Source: an uncultured Candidatus Sumerlaeota bacterium (GTDB lineage Bacteria > Sumerlaeota > Sumerlaeia > SLMS01 > JAHLLQ01). From it: a DNA stretch of 64,000 bases. Shown here in pieces: positions 22,663 to 63,630 of this stretch. The notes below the pieces were generated by a model. The model was given only the letters and a program-made list of their open reading frames with translations. It made no database searches and was not told the origin of the DNA. The translations under genes and the position numbers were made by a program. The DNA is taken from NCBI GenBank assembly GCA_964580585.1, contig CAZOKZ010000003.1, forward strand, positions 51,468-115,467. Direction: 5' to 3'. Position 1 is the first letter of the stretch, and each line of letters opens with the position of its first letter.

Positions 22663-23010
22663 TTGGATCTGAGAGTTTCGGACATGGAAGAAAAATCGCG
22701 AATTGGTGCCGGCTGGGAATTGGTGGGGTTGTGCTTTATTTTAGGGGGAACCTATTTCGTGTTGAGTGCTTTCAATAGCGGTATTGGTGTGCTTCCCATT
22801 GCGTTTTTTGTATTCTTTCTTGCTGGTGTTTGCTATGCGTTTGCTCGAATTCTTCGTGAACTTAATAAAATTCAAGAGCAAACCAAAGAGAACGGACGAT
22901 TGCTAAAACTCTTAGCCCAGGAAAACGATCATAAAAAAACCAGAGAGGTTTCGACGAAGACGGGCACCTCAACTGAAGTGCCTAAAATCGCAACTGGTCA
23001 CCCATTTTGA
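22663..23010 (+). CDS. Small membrane protein (2 TM), hypothetical
   Basis: The region is lower-GC (~43%). The gene overlaps the next gene by 4 nt. Confidence 0.35.
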   Translation: MDLRVSDMEEKSRIGAGWELVGLCFILGGTYFVLSAFNSGIGVLPIAFFVFFLAGVCYAFARILRELNKIQEQTKENGRLLKLLAQENDHKKTREVSTKTGTSTEVPKIATGHPF

Positions 23011-23576
23011 AACGCCTGCACCAGATTGTATTAATCGCTTCTCTTGCTGGGATTTGCTGGCTTGGAATGCAGGCAATTCATGAACTTGGGCATGTTCTCG
23101 GAGCAGTAATTACGGGAGGTTCCATCTCCAAAGTTGTTTTGCATCCATTGGAAATTTCCCGGACCGATCTGGCAAACAATCCCCATCCACTCGTTGTCGT
23201 TTGGCTGGGACCGATAGTGGGCGTTCTGGTTCCATTGCTCGTTTGGTTTGTTGTTTGGAAATGGAAATTTCCCGGCGAATATATTTATCGAAGCGTTGCG
23301 GGATTTTGCCTGGTTGCCAACGGAGGTTACATTGCCAGCGACGCGTTTTTTCGTGTGGGGGACGGAGGCGATATGATTCGCCACGGGTCTAGTGTATGGC
23401 AATTGCTTGCGTTTGGCTTGTTGACGTTTCCGTGTGGAATCGCACTTTGGCATGGCCTTGGTCCAAAGTTCGGATTCGGTGAATCTCACGAAAAAGTGGA
23501 TCGACAAACCACACTTGTTTTGCTCGTCTTATTAGTAGTGTTATCCGGTATTGAATTCTTGATCGATAGCCGATGA
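23007..23576 (+). CDS. Peptidase M50B-like small membrane metalloprotease (HELGH in TM helix)
   Basis: Has IHELGHVLGAVITGG and about 5 TM helices over ~190 aa, matching site-2-protease-like M50B proteins. Confidence 0.45.
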   Translation: MKRLHQIVLIASLAGICWLGMQAIHELGHVLGAVITGGSISKVVLHPLEISRTDLANNPHPLVVVWLGPIVGVLVPLLVWFVVWKWKFPGEYIYRSVAGFCLVANGGYIASDAFFRVGDGGDMIRHGSSVWQLLAFGLLTFPCGIALWHGLGPKFGFGESHEKVDRQTTLVLLVLLVVLSGIEFLIDSR

Positions 23577-38918: not shown

Positions 38919-39800
38919 ATGTCATGCGAAGACCCTGAATGCGAATGCCTGCCCTATCAGATGGAGGTGTATTTCGAGGCGTTTCCCGCGTTGGATACCG
39001 AGCGTCTGGCGGCGTTCATCAATGCCACGGAACCCGGCGATGAACCCTGCATGGTGGGGTCCGCTACCGAGCAAAACGCCGACGGCGTGCGTCTGACTGG
39101 ATTTCTCGTTTCACAGGGAGCCTACCACGCGGGGGTACTGGTTCACGCTGCTGCCGCTCCCGCGCCTGAAATCATCGCTGCTTCACGACTCGTTGCACCG
39201 CTCAAAGAACAACTGCTTGCGCATCAATCCTTCGCGCTCATCACCCTGGCGTCGGGCGACGAAGAGGCCCCCGCGTACGAAAACCTGATCTTTTTGCTCA
39301 AAATCGCCATGGGTCTTTGCGACCAGGGGGGCATTGGCGCCTCGAACCCGCACACAGGGCTGTGTTACCCGGGAGATTTGCTGCTCGATTTGGCGAGTTT
39401 TTCGCCCGACGATTGGATCTCGGAAGAGGAAGGAGGCGAAGACGCGCCGCAAACCCTCTGGGATTCGATCCGCCGCGAAGGCACCCCGATGGAGTTGCTT
39501 GCCGACATCGTATGTTTTGAAATGAACGACACCGTGTGGATGGCCACGCGAGGATTTGCGTTCTGCGGATTCCCGGATTTCGTTTACCGTCTGGAAAACC
39601 CGGACGAAGACATCACCGACATTGCCCATTTTTTCCAGAACGCGTTTGTTTACCTGATGGCGAACGGCGCCATCATCGAAGCGGGACACACCATGGGCTA
39701 TGACGAAAACATCGCGTATCGTTTTTCGAAAGTGCCGGAAGATGTGGAACTGCCGTTTGAAGAATACGAGTTGCTGCTGGTGGAACGAGAACGAGCTTAA
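38919..39800 (+). CDS. Hypothetical cytoplasmic protein
   Basis: The 293-aa ORF has good codon usage and an acidic C-terminus. No recognisable motif was found. Confidence 0.4.
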   Translation: MSCEDPECECLPYQMEVYFEAFPALDTERLAAFINATEPGDEPCMVGSATEQNADGVRLTGFLVSQGAYHAGVLVHAAAAPAPEIIAASRLVAPLKEQLLAHQSFALITLASGDEEAPAYENLIFLLKIAMGLCDQGGIGASNPHTGLCYPGDLLLDLASFSPDDWISEEEGGEDAPQTLWDSIRREGTPMELLADIVCFEMNDTVWMATRGFAFCGFPDFVYRLENPDEDITDIAHFFQNAFVYLMANGAIIEAGHTMGYDENIAYRFSKVPEDVELPFEEYELLLVERERA

Positions 39801-39833
39801 GATGCCATTTATTTTCTTAAGGAATAATTTGCA

Positions 39834-40292
39834 TTAAATTCGAATTATTAGGTAAGTCAAAATACAAATCAACCCAATAGGAATCACGTAAGTTACCCAT
39901 TTTTCTAAATGGAACCTCGTGTTTTTCTGAGAACTCAAGCATTCTATCGAGTGTTTGTAACATCGAATAAGGTTTTCCCATTCGGATTCTTCTGAATCGA
40001 AAATGGGAAGTTGTTCTGCTATTTTTCGAGGAACTATAGGTTTAATAAATCGAATATCGGAGTCCAGCAAGTTCAAGGCTAATGACAACCAAGAAATTTT
40101 CCAATTGTTGTCACGAATATGTTTCGCAATCCAAAGTAAACGAAGAAAAACACTTCCCCAAAGTAAATAGCACAGTATTGCAACGAACGCATTGGAGATA
40201 GTAAACGGTTTTGGCAAAATTAGTAATAATCCAACAGAATTCAGAATGAATGAAACGAAAACGATAGGTGTTTTTATGAACATGCTTTGCAT
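39834..40292 (-). CDS. Hypothetical membrane protein (3-4 TM) encoded in a ~35% GC islet
   Basis: The ORF spans the AT-rich island 39800-40370 in an otherwise ~60% GC context. Its Ile/Leu/Lys/Asn-rich codon usage is foreign to the flanks. Confidence 0.35.
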   Translation of the reverse strand: MQSMFIKTPIVFVSFILNSVGLLLILPKPFTISNAFVAILCYLLWGSVFLRLLWIAKHIRDNNWKISWLSLALNLLDSDIRFIKPIVPRKIAEQLPIFDSEESEWENLIRCYKHSIECLSSQKNTRFHLEKWVTYVIPIGLICILTYLIIRI

Positions 40293-40368
40293 CGATGATA
40301 TTTCTCAATCTAACATATTTAGCATCATTCTCTTGAATAAGAAACCTTTCAATCCAATATTGAGAATC

Positions 40369-40797
40369 TCACTCCACATCCGGCTTCCCGCGCATTTTCT
40401 TAATTCCCGCGCGGTGGGATTTTTTCTTCAAGCGTTTTTCCTGCACTGCGCGCGGCATGGCGGTGGGAATGCGGCGAGCGCGGCGACGATTCAGTTTCGC
40501 GACTTTTTCGCGCAAACGAATCAGACAAAGCTGCTTGTTCTGATGCTGGCTGCGTTCCTGCTGACACGTCACAACCAACCCCGAGGGACGGTGGCGCAAC
40601 CGCACGGCGGATTCGGTTTTATTGACGTGCTGGCCGCCCTTGCCGCCCGAGCGAAACGTATCCACATCGCATTCGGCGAGCAACTTCTCGTCCGTACTGG
40701 GTAAAATTATTCGATCTGTCATCGGGTTTATTTTCCTCTGGCCCACCGGCCTTGTTGCCTCATGCTCAAGTCTTATCCTGGTTTGCCTTGTCGGCAA
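40369..40797 (-). CDS. arfB: Alternative ribosome-rescue factor ArfB (peptidyl-tRNA hydrolase, GGQ motif, basic C-tail)
   Basis: The GGQ motif sits in [17 protein letters not shown]. The product is ~140 aa with a Lys/Arg-rich C-terminal tail. Confidence 0.75.
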
Positions 40798-40823
40798 GGG
40801 GGAACGCGATTATAAGCGAAAAT

Positions 40824-42281
40824 ATGAATGAACAAAAACGGATTGAAGCAATGAGCGACGATAAAAAAATAGGATTGGTGGCGGGTTTTCTGGCGGGCGA
40901 CGCGTTGGGGGCTCCTTTCTACGCGGTGAAAGCCGCGCATATTCAGCAATTGGTTGGCGGATGGGTGGACGATTATCTTGCCGATCCGATTTTATTTCCC
41001 GATAAACCGAATAAAAACGTTCTGCCCGGCCTGCATTCGATCCATGGCCAGGAATTCCTTGCCGTGTTGGCCGCACGCAACGACCAGGACACGGGCCAGC
41101 ATCCGATTGCGCGGGCGGCGATGCTGCTGCGCGAATTAGCAGGCGACGATTTCGATAATCCCCACCCGGCACTCGGGGCGTTGCGCGCTCCCGGCAAACC
41201 GCTTCGCCGCGCGTTGCATTGCTGGAGTACCGAGTACCCATGGGAACCCGAGGACCATTTCGCGTTGACGGAAACCAGCGAAGGCGCCTCGACCGCCGCG
41301 CGAGCGTTGGCCACGGTCATCAGCGAAACGGAATTCGATCCGATTGGCCTGGCGCGCCTGACACATTTGAAGGAACCTGCCTTGATGGCAGCGTGGACCA
41401 TTGCATGGGTGGCGCGTCGTTTGATCGAAATCGAAAACCCGAAAAAAATCGACGCGGATGAATTACTGTCCGAGTTGATTGCAGATGCGCGCACCATCGA
41501 AGATGCCCTGCGCGATGGACCTGTTGGCGAACATTGGCGCGAAACCGGGCTTGGCTATCCGCCCGCACGATTCAGCGAATGCCTCAGTCCGCTCGCCAGC
41601 CTGTTGCACACGGGTGACGATGCGTTGGCGGAAAAAACGCTCGTCGCACAAGCGCGCGAATTCGCGCCGCTGCATTCTGTGGCGCATACACAACATGGCT
41701 TTGCGCCTGTGCTCGTGCCATGGGTGTTGTACCGCGCGTTGGGGCCGATGGCGCCCGCGCACGCGGTCGAAGACGCCGTCAATCGTGGGGGGGAAGCATC
41801 CCTGGCCGCCGGGTTGATCGGTGGATTGATCGGCGCGCGTTATGGGTTCGAACATTTACCCGAATCATGGATGGCCGGATGCCTGGCGTGGGATATTGCG
41901 CGTCGGCTTACACTGCAACCGAACGCTGCAACCGAAGACGATTGGCTGGCCGCCGAACGGGGCTGGACCGCGCGCGAAGAAGAGTTGCGCGCGCCGTTGC
42001 GCAAAGCCGTCGATGCCGAAAAAGCCGCCATGGTGCAGTCGGCAAAGAAGAAAAAAAAGACCGCCGAAAAAAATGCCAAAGCCTCGATTCAAAACACCCC
42101 CCAGGGCGAATTGCCGTTCGCTCCGCCACCGCAAGTATGGCTCGAAGAAAAAGGCAATGAATTGGCACCGTGGGAAAAACAACGGCTGAAATCCGAACGC
42201 GGGCGTAAACGCATCGAATGGAAAGAGGAACGCCGCCGCCGACGTTCCTCGCGTGCGGATACGGAAATCAGCGAGGATTGA
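40824..42281 (+). CDS. ADP-ribosylglycohydrolase family protein with Lys-rich C-terminal extension
   Basis: The motif GLVAGFLAGDALGAPF is a DraG/ARH-type N-terminal signature. The C-terminal ~90 aa are basic and low-complexity. Confidence 0.55.
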   Translation: MNEQKRIEAMSDDKKIGLVAGFLAGDALGAPFYAVKAAHIQQLVGGWVDDYLADPILFPDKPNKNVLPGLHSIHGQEFLAVLAARNDQDTGQHPIARAAMLLRELAGDDFDNPHPALGALRAPGKPLRRALHCWSTEYPWEPEDHFALTETSEGASTAARALATVISETEFDPIGLARLTHLKEPALMAAWTIAWVARRLIEIENPKKIDADELLSELIADARTIEDALRDGPVGEHWRETGLGYPPARFSECLSPLASLLHTGDDALAEKTLVAQAREFAPLHSVAHTQHGFAPVLVPWVLYRALGPMAPAHAVEDAVNRGGEASLAAGLIGGLIGARYGFEHLPESWMAGCLAWDIARRLTLQPNAATEDDWLAAERGWTAREEELRAPLRKAVDAEKAAMVQSAKKKKKTAEKNAKASIQNTPQGELPFAPPPQVWLEEKGNELAPWEKQRLKSERGRKRIEWKEERRRRRSSRADTEISED

Positions 42282-60942: not shown

Positions 60943-62958
60943 TCAGTTTTCTAAGCCAGGCGTGCTGCCGCGCAAATGTTTCCAGAGCAATCGCGCGCCT
61001 GCTGTCGATTCCACGAGGCATGCTTCCGTTCCGATGCAAAGCCATGGCACCATGCTGACCATATATTGCGGCCATTTCGTGTTCCAAACGAACAAAAACA
61101 GCATCGTGACCACGCCGACGATCAGCACGCGGGGCTCGCGTTTCCACCAAATCGCCAGGCCCAGAAAACCGAGTATCGTGGCGGACTTGTCCAACCAGGC
61201 CCATCCGACGAGGGGATCGAAATCCAGGTAAATCCAAGGCCAGAGAATCGGCTGATACCAGGGAAAGTCTGCCCGTTCGACCAACTCGCTGCTCGAAAAA
61301 TTCTGGTGAAATGTCAAACGATCGTGAAGACGCGTGAGCGCGTCCGGCGACCATAGGTACCAGTCGCTGGCGAACATGAACAGAAATGAAAATGCCACAT
61401 AGGCCGCGAAAACCAAGGCGATGATCTTCCATCCGCGTCCGCGGTTCTGGAAAAGCCATAGTCCAAACGCGACGGTGACGGCCAACGGCGCCACGGCGGC
61501 GAGGTACTTGCAAGACATGGCGATGCCCGCGCATGCGGCGGAAGCGGCGAGCCAGAACCACGGGAGCTTTTTCCACGATGGCGGGCCTTCGGTCTCCGTC
61601 CCCGGCGCGAGGGACGGAGCCCTGCGCATGGCCGCGTCGAACGCTAAAACACAAGAGGTGCCAAATAAAACCATGGCGCTGTCGAGATAGGCGATCGACG
61701 TGTAGTGCCATCCGAGTCCGAACAATGCCCAAACGATACCCGCAATCGGGAATCGAATCGCCAGGATTGCCGCCAGTAATCCGGCGCAAATGGCTACCAC
61801 CATCCGCGCGGCCATCACGCCGTCGTTTTCGGATTCCGCGTGCGTGATATTCATCACAATCGCGAACAATGCCATGGAAAAACGCGGGTGTTCGTACACC
61901 GCGTCGAAATCGATAACGCCCTGCCAGTTTCCTTCGCGCATCATGTGGGCAAAAGCCATCGATATCGGGACATAATCGTATTCATCCACTTCCATGCCCG
62001 TCGAGCGACCATGATCGAATCGCATGGCGAAGGCGAACAATCCGATCCATACGACCAACACGATTCGAACAGCACAGGGCAGCGGTTTCTCCGTCCCCCA
62101 GAACCGCCAGAGCAACCAGCCAACGCCCAACGCCAATCCCATCAACAAACACGCAGTCGTCGGCCAACTCCGTCCCCCGCGGCGTGGAGCAGCGCCACCG
62201 TCTCCTGCTCCGTCCCCCTTGTAATTGATCACCAAATCCGCGGCGCGACGTACATGATGGTGATAATCAATGCCTTCGCCGCCATTATTGTCCCAACGTA
62301 CTTCGGGCGCAGTGATGTGGAAGACGAAATCGAGCATCTGATTGGAAGGTACTTGGACTTCCAGACGAAAACGTCCCGGTTCGACTTCCGGCATGGGCGA
62401 TCCCCAGGCGTCGCCGATTTCAAACGAATTTTCGGGAATCGGTCCCGACCGATCCGTCGGACGATTAAAACCGTTGATGCCCCAAATCAAATCCACGGCG
62501 CTATCGTTGGGGGAAAGGTACTCGATGCAAACGGGTACGAAGTTTTCTCCGTCCCCGGTCGGCGCTGCAGTGCTTGGGTCGCCTAACTGAAGGAACGAAT
62601 TTTCCTCCATGCCATCCACGCGCGTGTTCGGATTACCCGGATCCAACACCCACTCGCGATCATTGACGACAAACTTATATTCATGCTCGCTCGGCTCGAT
62701 AAACTGCATCGTCAACTCGAACGTGCCGTCGCCGTCATCGTCCTGCATGTAGTTTTTGCGCAAATCCCAGATGTTGAAGCTGCCCGCCAGACTGACGCGA
62801 TTGGCTGGCTCCTCAGGCGTGTAGCGAAACGTCACCGTTCGCATGCCATCGTCGAGCTCGCCGATTTCCACCTCGGCGCGCGCGGCGTTCGTGCCCGTGA
62901 ATAGATACACATTCACCAACACCATACATGCAAAAACTACCCGCCAAAGCTTTGGCAT
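60943..62958 (-). CDS. GT-C-like (PMT/ArnT-like) polytopic membrane glycosyltransferase candidate with N-terminal periplasmic CBM48/AMPK-beta-like domain(s)
   Basis: A signal/TM segment precedes the N-terminal domain. VTFRYTPEEPANRVSLAGSFNIWD...EHEYKFVVNDREWVLDPGNP matches the AMPK1_CBM pattern. About 11 TM helices follow, with a DE motif (MEVDEYDY) in the first loop. Confidence 0.4.
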   Translation of the reverse strand: MPKLWRVVFACMVLVNVYLFTGTNAARAEVEIGELDDGMRTVTFRYTPEEPANRVSLAGSFNIWDLRKNYMQDDDGDGTFELTMQFIEPSEHEYKFVVNDREWVLDPGNPNTRVDGMEENSFLQLGDPSTAAPTGDGENFVPVCIEYLSPNDSAVDLIWGINGFNRPTDRSGPIPENSFEIGDAWGSPMPEVEPGRFRLEVQVPSNQMLDFVFHITAPEVRWDNNGGEGIDYHHHVRRAADLVINYKGDGAGDGGAAPRRGGRSWPTTACLLMGLALGVGWLLWRFWGTEKPLPCAVRIVLVVWIGLFAFAMRFDHGRSTGMEVDEYDYVPISMAFAHMMREGNWQGVIDFDAVYEHPRFSMALFAIVMNITHAESENDGVMAARMVVAICAGLLAAILAIRFPIAGIVWALFGLGWHYTSIAYLDSAMVLFGTSCVLAFDAAMRRAPSLAPGTETEGPPSWKKLPWFWLAASAACAGIAMSCKYLAAVAPLAVTVAFGLWLFQNRGRGWKIIALVFAAYVAFSFLFMFASDWYLWSPDALTRLHDRLTFHQNFSSSELVERADFPWYQPILWPWIYLDFDPLVGWAWLDKSATILGFLGLAIWWKREPRVLIVGVVTMLFLFVWNTKWPQYMVSMVPWLCIGTEACLVESTAGARLLWKHLRGSTPGLEN

Positions 62959-63131
62959 GGGCCCTCACCTCACGATAAAGTTTTCTGGAAAATACAACAA
63001 ATGCCCCGAATACCCCCAATTTCGAGAGCTTTTATCCGAGAAGTTTGCGAAGTGCAACCCCGGAGTGGGCATCATGCAACGATTTTAAAGAGCTGTTGGT
63101 TTTGCAGTTCGATATAAGTGCGAAATAAAGT

Positions 63132-63464
63132 TTATGATTTCCATAGACCTGTCGATGCATGTAAAATTCCATAAGTTTTTGGATGTAAAATAAAACAATA
63201 TTGTGTTCCAAAACCGGAGAGTGGTTCTGGTTTTCTCTCCGCTGTAAAAAAAGTAATTAGAAAAGCATGTTTTTCGCCCTTTAACTTTCGAGTAATTTCA
63301 TGACAATCTTTGGCGTCTATTTTCATTTTACCGATATCGGTTCGATTCCAAATAAACATCTCTGACACACAATATTGATGCCCCTTTGCCTCAAGGTAGA
63401 GTGGATGACTTGAAATGCTGACAAGAGCTTGCTCTTGTTGTTCAGTCGAAAAATGGGAATTCAA
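63132..63464 (-). CDS. Hypothetical protein in an AT-rich islet
   Basis: It is the only ORF in the ~40% GC segment 63080-63560. It has no recognisable motif. Confidence 0.2.
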   Translation of the reverse strand: MNSHFSTEQQEQALVSISSHPLYLEAKGHQYCVSEMFIWNRTDIGKMKIDAKDCHEITRKLKGEKHAFLITFFTAERKPEPLSGFGTQYCFILHPKTYGILHASTGLWKS

Positions 63465-63630
63465 AATTCACCTCAGTTTTTTCACCTAACGATTATGACT
63501 TTATTTTTTCTCACCAATTGGCTAACCAGTCAAGCGAGTAGGGTGAATGTACATGTTTTCCACCGTCTTCGCTTGAATACCCCCGCTGGTCGGGCGTATA
63601 GATAAACAACCTTCCGGGAGGAGACCCCTC

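Follow-up and report, generated by a model that had tools for sequence, protein, structure and literature searches.

The most AT-rich stretch of the window, by which we mean the whole 64 kb of DNA that was analysed, is an islet between two convergent genes that holds one open reading frame (ORF) only. This ORF, here called the ORFan, is best explained as a horizontally acquired and lineage-restricted gene for an accessory membrane protein that would be transcribed with or just after the neighbouring ArfB-like gene. We put the probability of this reading at about 0.45 and infer both the foreign origin and the expression. In this reading, foreign AT-rich DNA with one gene only would have become fixed in the spacer that separates two convergent housekeeping genes, a site at which an insertion would do no damage, and every trace of the vehicle that delivered it would since have been lost. 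The islet would then encode a real, lineage-restricted membrane protein of 152 aa that is built from an N-terminal two-helix hairpin, a charged stretch of about 75 residues and a C-terminal membrane anchor. Transcription could run on into the ORFan from the ArfB-like gene, 76 nt upstream of it, or begin at the ORFan's own promoter in the AT-rich leader. By analogy with short AT-rich ORFans, its likeliest role would be an accessory and dispensable membrane function of mobile-element origin. The features of the locus are listed in Table 1.

Table 1. Position and description of the islet, its parts and the flanking genes (coordinates of the window)
Feature	Position	Strand	Description
DUF4261-like gene, left flank	38919..39800	+	293 aa, full-length; PF14080 24.3 bits, just under cut-off
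AT-rich islet	39801..40368	no strand	568 bp, GC 0.335; whole spacer between two complete convergent genes
Left end spacer	39801..39833	no strand	33 nt, GC 0.27; separates the convergent stops of the DUF4261-like gene and the ORFan
ORFan gene	39834..40292	-	152 aa + stop; predicted three-helix membrane protein
Right end spacer	40293..40368	-	76 nt, GC 0.29; precedes the ORFan and follows the ArfB-like stop codon
ArfB-like gene, right flank	40369..40722	-	117 aa, full-length; RF-1 domain 95.5 bits, GGQ present

Composition and surroundings of the islet

The GC content of the segment 39800-40370 was compared with that of 570-bp windows taken over the full 64 kb. The segment has a GC content of 0.335, whereas the 570-bp windows have a mean of 0.545 ± 0.041 (sd), which places the islet about 5 sd under the mean. 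The lowest of all 570-bp windows (GC 0.335) begins at 39791. When 200-bp windows were used, the GC content fell from 0.51-0.60 to 0.33-0.38 over approximately 39700-40400 and then returned to 0.58. The original prediction had described a sharp compositional discontinuity against flanks of about 60% GC. The discontinuity is confirmed by these values; the flanks are slightly lower than was stated, with about 55-60% GC.

On both sides the islet borders directly on a stop codon, that of the DUF4261-like gene (+ strand) on the left and that of the ArfB-like gene (- strand) on the right. Its non-coding ends are AT-rich like the ORF itself, which has a GC content of 0.346. Spacers in the window are mostly 100-500 bp long with 45-55% GC, and none of the remaining 22 spacers of at least 100 nt, which range from GC 0.37 to 0.60, is as AT-rich as the islet.

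Both flanking genes are complete and have a native composition. The DUF4261-like gene has a GC content of 0.567 and a GC3 of 0.65. Its homologues are 280-306 aa long and 41-49% identical, covering 95-100% of the query, and one homologue with 41% identity is named Candidatus Sumerlaeia. The ArfB-like gene (GC 0.571) lies on the same strand as the ORFan. The closest relatives of its product are proteins of about 115 aa annotated as 'peptide chain release factor-like', with 60-68% identity. The C-terminus aligns with the family end KRLRSKPSxDE and the basic tail is present. With the NCBIfam ArfB model NF006718, the 117-aa protein reached 70.3 bits at a cut-off of 100 bits; because the score falls below this curated cut-off, 'ArfB-like' is the safer name. 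The ORFan had originally been placed between a hypothetical gene and arfB. The position is correct, and the two neighbours are now described as DUF4261-like and, with 70.3 of the 100 bits asked for by the model, ArfB-like.

Farther away, the neighbouring genes encode MgtE, a gamma-glutamyltranspeptidase (GGT), a thioredoxin-like protein and a Ser/Thr kinase. FeoAB, YbeY, a GNAT acetyltransferase and an ADP-ribosylglycohydrolase are also encoded in the vicinity. The surrounding genes include no integrase, transposase or phage gene, and no tRNA was found in the 64-kb window. Defence, toxin or bacteriocin genes were likewise not found among the neighbours of the islet, and the context is housekeeping.

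The ORFan and its predicted protein

The ORFan fills 81% of the islet. Its codon usage was analysed with a CAI-like index, which was 0.509 for the ORFan and 0.725 ± 0.040 (minimum 0.654) for the 25 long ORFs of the window. The ORFan is therefore below the range of the long ORFs. This bears out the atypical usage that had been claimed for a single 152-aa ORF with foreign codons, and GC content and codon adaptation both deviate from the window.

The open frame is longer than expected by chance. When the sequence was shuffled by mononucleotides, 0 of 5000 shuffles contained 152 or more codons in a row without a stop (mean longest run 61, maximum 151). In dinucleotide-preserving shuffles, where the mean longest run was 70, such a run was obtained in 5 of 5000 (p ~0.001). 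The coding strand of the ORFan contains 18 stop triplets in total. None of them is internal to the reading frame of the ORFan, 16 are in the second frame and 2 in the third, which is a strongly frame-specific pattern.

In a long-evolved gene from an AT-rich donor, GC3 is normally well under GC1. The GC1, GC2 and GC3 values of the ORFan are flat at 0.37, 0.33 and 0.35, and no codon-position periodicity was observed in its base composition (chi-square 6.0, p = 0.43). The same test gave p = 0.005 for the ArfB-like gene and p = 1e-13 for the DUF4261-like gene. A flat GC content over the codon positions fits a young ORF in an AT-rich spacer and a decaying remnant equally well.

The sequences around the ORFan were then analysed for expression signals. 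No Shine-Dalgarno-like 4-mer was found upstream of the ATG; in the window, such a 4-mer precedes 16 of the 34 ORFs at a background of 12%. Upstream of the ORFan there is one sigma-70-like match, TTGAAA-17-AATGAT, from 40352 to 40324 with 9 of 12 hexamer matches, and the number of promoter-like sites in the leader was no higher than in shuffles. The right end spacer did not fold better than its shuffles (z = -0.35). In the left end spacer no terminator-like hairpin was observed, with fold z-scores of +0.96 and +0.20. No stable RNA fold was detected in the islet when compared with shuffles, and the Rfam scan of the window gave no family at the gathering score. A match to CRISPR-DR45 in the islet was rejected as chance level (E = 0.52, 21 bits at a threshold of 37 bits). 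Taken together, the ORFan is probably coding, an estimate in which the foreign-gene and the de novo readings are added up.

Relatives of the ORFan protein were searched for in several ways. A word-indexed search of 5.8 billion clusters and an exhaustive phmmer search of 1.84 billion representatives each recovered the ORFan protein itself and nothing else. No family was matched in Pfam or NCBIfam. With PHROGs no match was obtained at E up to 1, and with the same limit no PADLOC family was matched by the ORFan or by its neighbours. The PDB sequences, searched at E up to 10, contained no homologue. No relative was seen in viral contigs or JGI metagenomes, where the scans were confirmed by tblastn, and tblastn against the 64-kb window itself showed no paralogue. 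The DNA of the islet had no match in phage and plasmid records by blastn. By these sequence searches the 152-aa protein is a strict ORFan, and the word 'orphan' of the original prediction holds in its strictest sense, with self-matches only from the BLAST and HMM searches. There was no homologue in about 15 billion proteins, and every sampled relative in the lineage would therefore lack the gene.

The Kyte-Doolittle analysis showed three clear hydrophobic segments in the ORFan protein at residues ~8-27, 33-56 and 132-151; the 3-4 membrane segments proposed before are acceptable, and three of them are solid. The stretch 57-131 is charged, with K57, R60 and K65 at its start. Since these three residues follow helix 2, the charged stretch would be located in the cytoplasm according to the positive-inside rule. 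This suggests a topology with the N-terminus inside, a short outside loop, a cytoplasmic middle part and a C-terminal anchor. A single-sequence AF2 model of the ORFan was all-helical and unusable at its low confidence (pLDDT 59). When this model was compared with the PDB by Foldseek, the best E-value was 5.7 and no match was below E = 5. The coding strand consists of 36% T and 31% A. In yeast, T-rich non-genic sequence gives rise to emerging proteins that contain transmembrane (TM) segments (PMC7005711). Since a T-rich strand alone yields hydrophobic helices, the TM prediction is a weak sign of function for the ORFan (PMC7005711).

These properties have to be weighed against the possibility that a larger foreign insertion or an old spacer has decayed to what is now the islet, and that the 152-codon ORF is untranslated or non-functional and has still not been broken by mutation. 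A remnant would account for the flat GC1-3 values and the absent codon-position periodicity (p = 0.43), for the lack of a Shine-Dalgarno-like motif and for promoter and terminator signals that do not rise above chance. It would also agree with the lack of a homologue among the 5.8 billion clusters and the 1.84 billion representatives and with the low pLDDT of 59, and AT- and T-rich sequence gives hydrophobic, helix-like translations through composition alone (PMC7005711). However, an open frame of 152 codons is rare in DNA of 33% GC, as both types of shuffles showed (0 of 5000 and 5 of 5000), the 18 internal stop triplets wholly avoid frame 0 (0, 16 and 2), and the ORF takes up 81% of the islet. 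We consider a non-functional remnant unlikely, although less so than the other rivals.

Origin of the islet

The boundaries of the islet were inspected for traces of an insertion. No terminal inverted repeats were found. The sole direct repeat near the boundaries is the 10-mer ATTTTCTTAA, which occurs at 39811 and at 40394. We rejected it as a target-site duplication, since the right copy is located in conserved codons of the ArfB-like gene, 25 GC-rich coding bases lie between this copy and the islet, and a repeated 10-mer was found in 46% of the composition-matched shuffles. Flanking direct repeats, which the original prediction had named as a possible sign of acquisition, are thus represented by a chance-level 10-mer only. 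Searches of phages, plasmids, viral contigs and JGI metagenomes yielded no sequence that resembles a donor.

The neighbouring genes were then used to look for related loci. When a genome collection was scanned with the DUF4261-like protein, one match only was obtained, with 24% identity, and a metagenome scan with the ADP-ribosylglycohydrolase neighbour gave nothing. In the nearest sampled relatives, the DUF4261-like protein is 49% identical and the ArfB-like protein 68%. For three DUF4261-like and three ArfB-like homologues the gene contexts were compared with this locus; synteny was not shared, and no downstream partner was conserved. In no sampled genome was the same low-GC gene seen at this locus; the best homologues of the neighbouring genes' products are 49% and 68% identical and lack synteny. 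The original prediction had read the locus as a recent horizontal acquisition. This is plausible and in line with the sharp composition break, but mobility genes, a tRNA, repeats and a donor were not found. Short length, AT-richness and atypical composition are hallmarks of bacterial ORFans and are commonly ascribed to an origin from phages or integrative elements (PMC12315717, PMC3514957, PMC2718499).

The gene could also have been born within the lineage. An AT- and T-rich spacer would have gained an open frame, and the T-rich strand would have given it TM helices, so that the protein would be young and native. The complete absence of homologues, the GC content that is flat over the codon positions without periodicity, the coding strand with 36% T and 31% A, and the lack of a Shine-Dalgarno motif and of any mobility or donor signature are all what would be expected of such a gene. 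TM-containing emerging proteins from T-rich non-genic sequence are known in yeast (PMC7005711), and birth from non-coding DNA is a candidate source of bacterial ORFans (PMC12315717). However, a birth at this place needs a prior spacer of 568 bp with 33% GC between convergent genes, and no spacer of the window is as AT-rich. Foreign DNA would in turn be the simplest source of a spacer of this kind. We regard a de novo birth as improbable. About the same low probability is given to a broader proposal, in which the ORFan is either a recently born gene from an AT- and T-rich spacer, possibly decayed foreign DNA, that is caught before it has acquired periodicity, a Shine-Dalgarno motif or relatives, or the first representative of a so far unsampled protein family, with small membrane proteins carried by unknown mobile elements.

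As a subset of the foreign-gene reading, the ORFan might be a small membrane protein for defence, immunity or abortive infection, and the original prediction had offered immunity or abortive infection as an example. This would be suggested by analogy only, in that a membrane protein is encoded by the one gene of a small AT-rich islet. However, PADLOC and PHROGs gave no match at E up to 1 and there was no Pfam or NCBIfam family, which leaves the guess without a counterpart in any of the four collections. In addition, the neighbours (MgtE, GGT, the Ser/Thr kinase, YbeY, GNAT and FeoAB) do not include defence, toxin or bacteriocin genes, and no fold match was obtained in the PDB. A defence role is therefore held to be very unlikely.

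The junctions of the islet are genuine. The ORFan protein is known from one NCBI contig of 125 kb and from two short Logan contigs of the runs SRR13617029 and SRR13617028. The Logan contigs match the window at 39572-40914 and 39593-40927 with 0 mismatches; both span both junctions and pass unbranched through the two edges of the islet. An exact look-up of the ArfB-like protein returned the same two contigs with the islet present, and no islet-free variant was found; these further copies belong to the same strain. An assembly or binning artefact, with foreign reads joined chimerically, might be suspected in a genome that is apparently metagenome-assembled and for a protein that is limited to one NCBI contig and the assemblies of two SRA runs, but the two independent Logan assemblies reproduce both junctions at 100% identity, and a chimera is thereby effectively refuted.

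Relation to known ORFans and small membrane proteins

Short AT-rich ORFans are common in high-GC genomes, and their origin is a general problem that has long been debated (PMC12315717). The locus, where a new ORFan occupies an AT-rich islet, is an ordinary example of what is already known, and no sign of a new system or mechanism was seen at the locus. Like the bacterial ORFans described in atypical islets (Daubin & Ochman 2004; Cortez et al. 2009, PMC2718499; Yu & Stoltzfus 2012, PMC3514957; reviewed in PMC12315717), the gene is short with 152 aa, is markedly AT-richer than its host, has an atypical codon usage and no homologue, and is located in an otherwise housekeeping neighbourhood. In contrast to these, it is solitary and lies outside any cluster of atypical genes or any recognisable integrative element. 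Here, an integrase, an att-like repeat and a tRNA are lacking, and GC3 is not depressed in comparison with GC1 and GC2.

The de novo emerging membrane proteins of yeast (Vakirlis et al. 2020, PMC7005711) share with the ORFan the T-rich coding strand, TM helices that are possibly compositional, the lack of a homologue and the lack of codon-position periodicity. The locus described here differs in that it is bacterial, that the extreme AT content of the spacer is unexplained by the native composition, and that an emergence would be read from the present sequence alone (compare PMC7005711). A third group for comparison are the small membrane proteins of phages and mobile elements, such as holins, superinfection-exclusion proteins and Abi membrane effectors. 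They are alike in their size range, in their several TM helices and in being AT-rich compared with the host, whereas the ORFan has no PHROG or PADLOC match, no prophage context and no partner genes.

The locus is a clean and minimal case, since one gene fills one spacer and the boundaries are exactly at two stop codons. It joins a statistically maintained ORF with an absent codon-position periodicity. The lineage is poorly sampled; if closer relatives were sequenced, the locus could provide a simple test between a foreign and a de novo origin.

Apart from the islet, the GC content of the window falls below 0.42 at one other place only, at about 62800-63100. A second AT-rich islet lies at 62959-63510 with a GC content of 0.38, and the genome thus has several such islets. 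The second islet contains another ORF without a family, and the GC3 of this ORF is 0.26.

The ArfB-like gene and its surroundings

Features of the window outside the 152-aa ORFan
Feature	Position	Strand	Size	GC
Stretch without ORF of at least 100 aa	12520-13251		732 nt	normal
Lower-GC pair of neighbouring ORFs	22663-23576	+	115 aa + 189 aa	0.43 and 0.48
ArfB-like gene	40369-40722	-		
Terminator-like hairpin + T-run	40405-40429	+		
ADP-ribosylglycohydrolase-domain protein gene	40827-42281	+		
Stretch without ORF of at least 100 aa	52295-53105		811 nt	normal
Second AT-rich islet	62959-63510			0.38
ORF of second islet	63132-63464	-	110 aa	

The gene on the right flank of the AT-rich 568-bp islet had been named arfB in the original prediction. 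Its product belongs to a group of about 115-aa 'peptide chain release factor-like' proteins and has 2371 relatives at E <= 1e-20. The NCBIfam ArfB model gave only 70.3 bits against a cut-off of 100 bits, and we therefore keep the label only as ArfB-like. The genomic neighbourhood of the gene was different in each lineage examined.

A terminator-like hairpin with a T-run (TCCCGCGCGGTGGGA TTTTTTCTTC) lies within the ArfB-like gene, in antisense orientation at its 3' end. It could be a relic terminator of the convergent DUF4261-like gene on the left flank. In the region, sites of this type were no more numerous than expected by chance.

Divergently transcribed from the ArfB-like gene is the gene for the ADP-ribosylglycohydrolase-domain protein, which carries a C-terminal extension of about 110 residues that is strongly charged and rich in Lys, Arg and Glu (KKKKKTAEKNAK...EERRRRRSSRADTEISED). 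When JGI metagenome contigs were scanned with peptide patterns, no relative was found.

Ends of the Logan contigs

The two Logan contigs that span the islet junctions cover window positions 39572-40914 (L001, run SRR13617029) and 39593-40927 (L002, run SRR13617028). Their ends differ by no more than about 20 nt on each side, and the breakpoints lie well beyond the islet edges. A possible cause of the breaks is variation between strains, or low coverage, in the genes on either side and not at the islet.

ORF-free stretches and other low-GC segments

The two ORF-free stretches were defined on a crude gene map with an ORF threshold of 100 aa. Rfam, applied at the gathering score to the entire 64-kb window, returned zero families.

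The lower-GC ORF pair has a GH2 glycosidase on one side and a sigma-54 response regulator on the other. Both products are membrane-type proteins, and the sole match of the second was a weak, Peptidase_M50B-like one under the cut-off (E = 0.008).

On one side of the second AT-rich islet is a membrane protein of 671 aa that contains a CBM48, and on the other an ORF of 125 aa. The islet's own ORF starts with TTG, preceded by GAGGTG, and has a GC3 of 0.26 and a CAI-like index of 0.49. The product looks soluble. It had no match in Pfam, PHROGs, PADLOC or NCBIfam and no relative on viral contigs. In this ORF, GC follows a gradient across the codon positions in the manner of a real AT-rich gene; the 152-aa ORFan, which encodes the predicted membrane protein and fills most of the first islet, lacks such a gradient.
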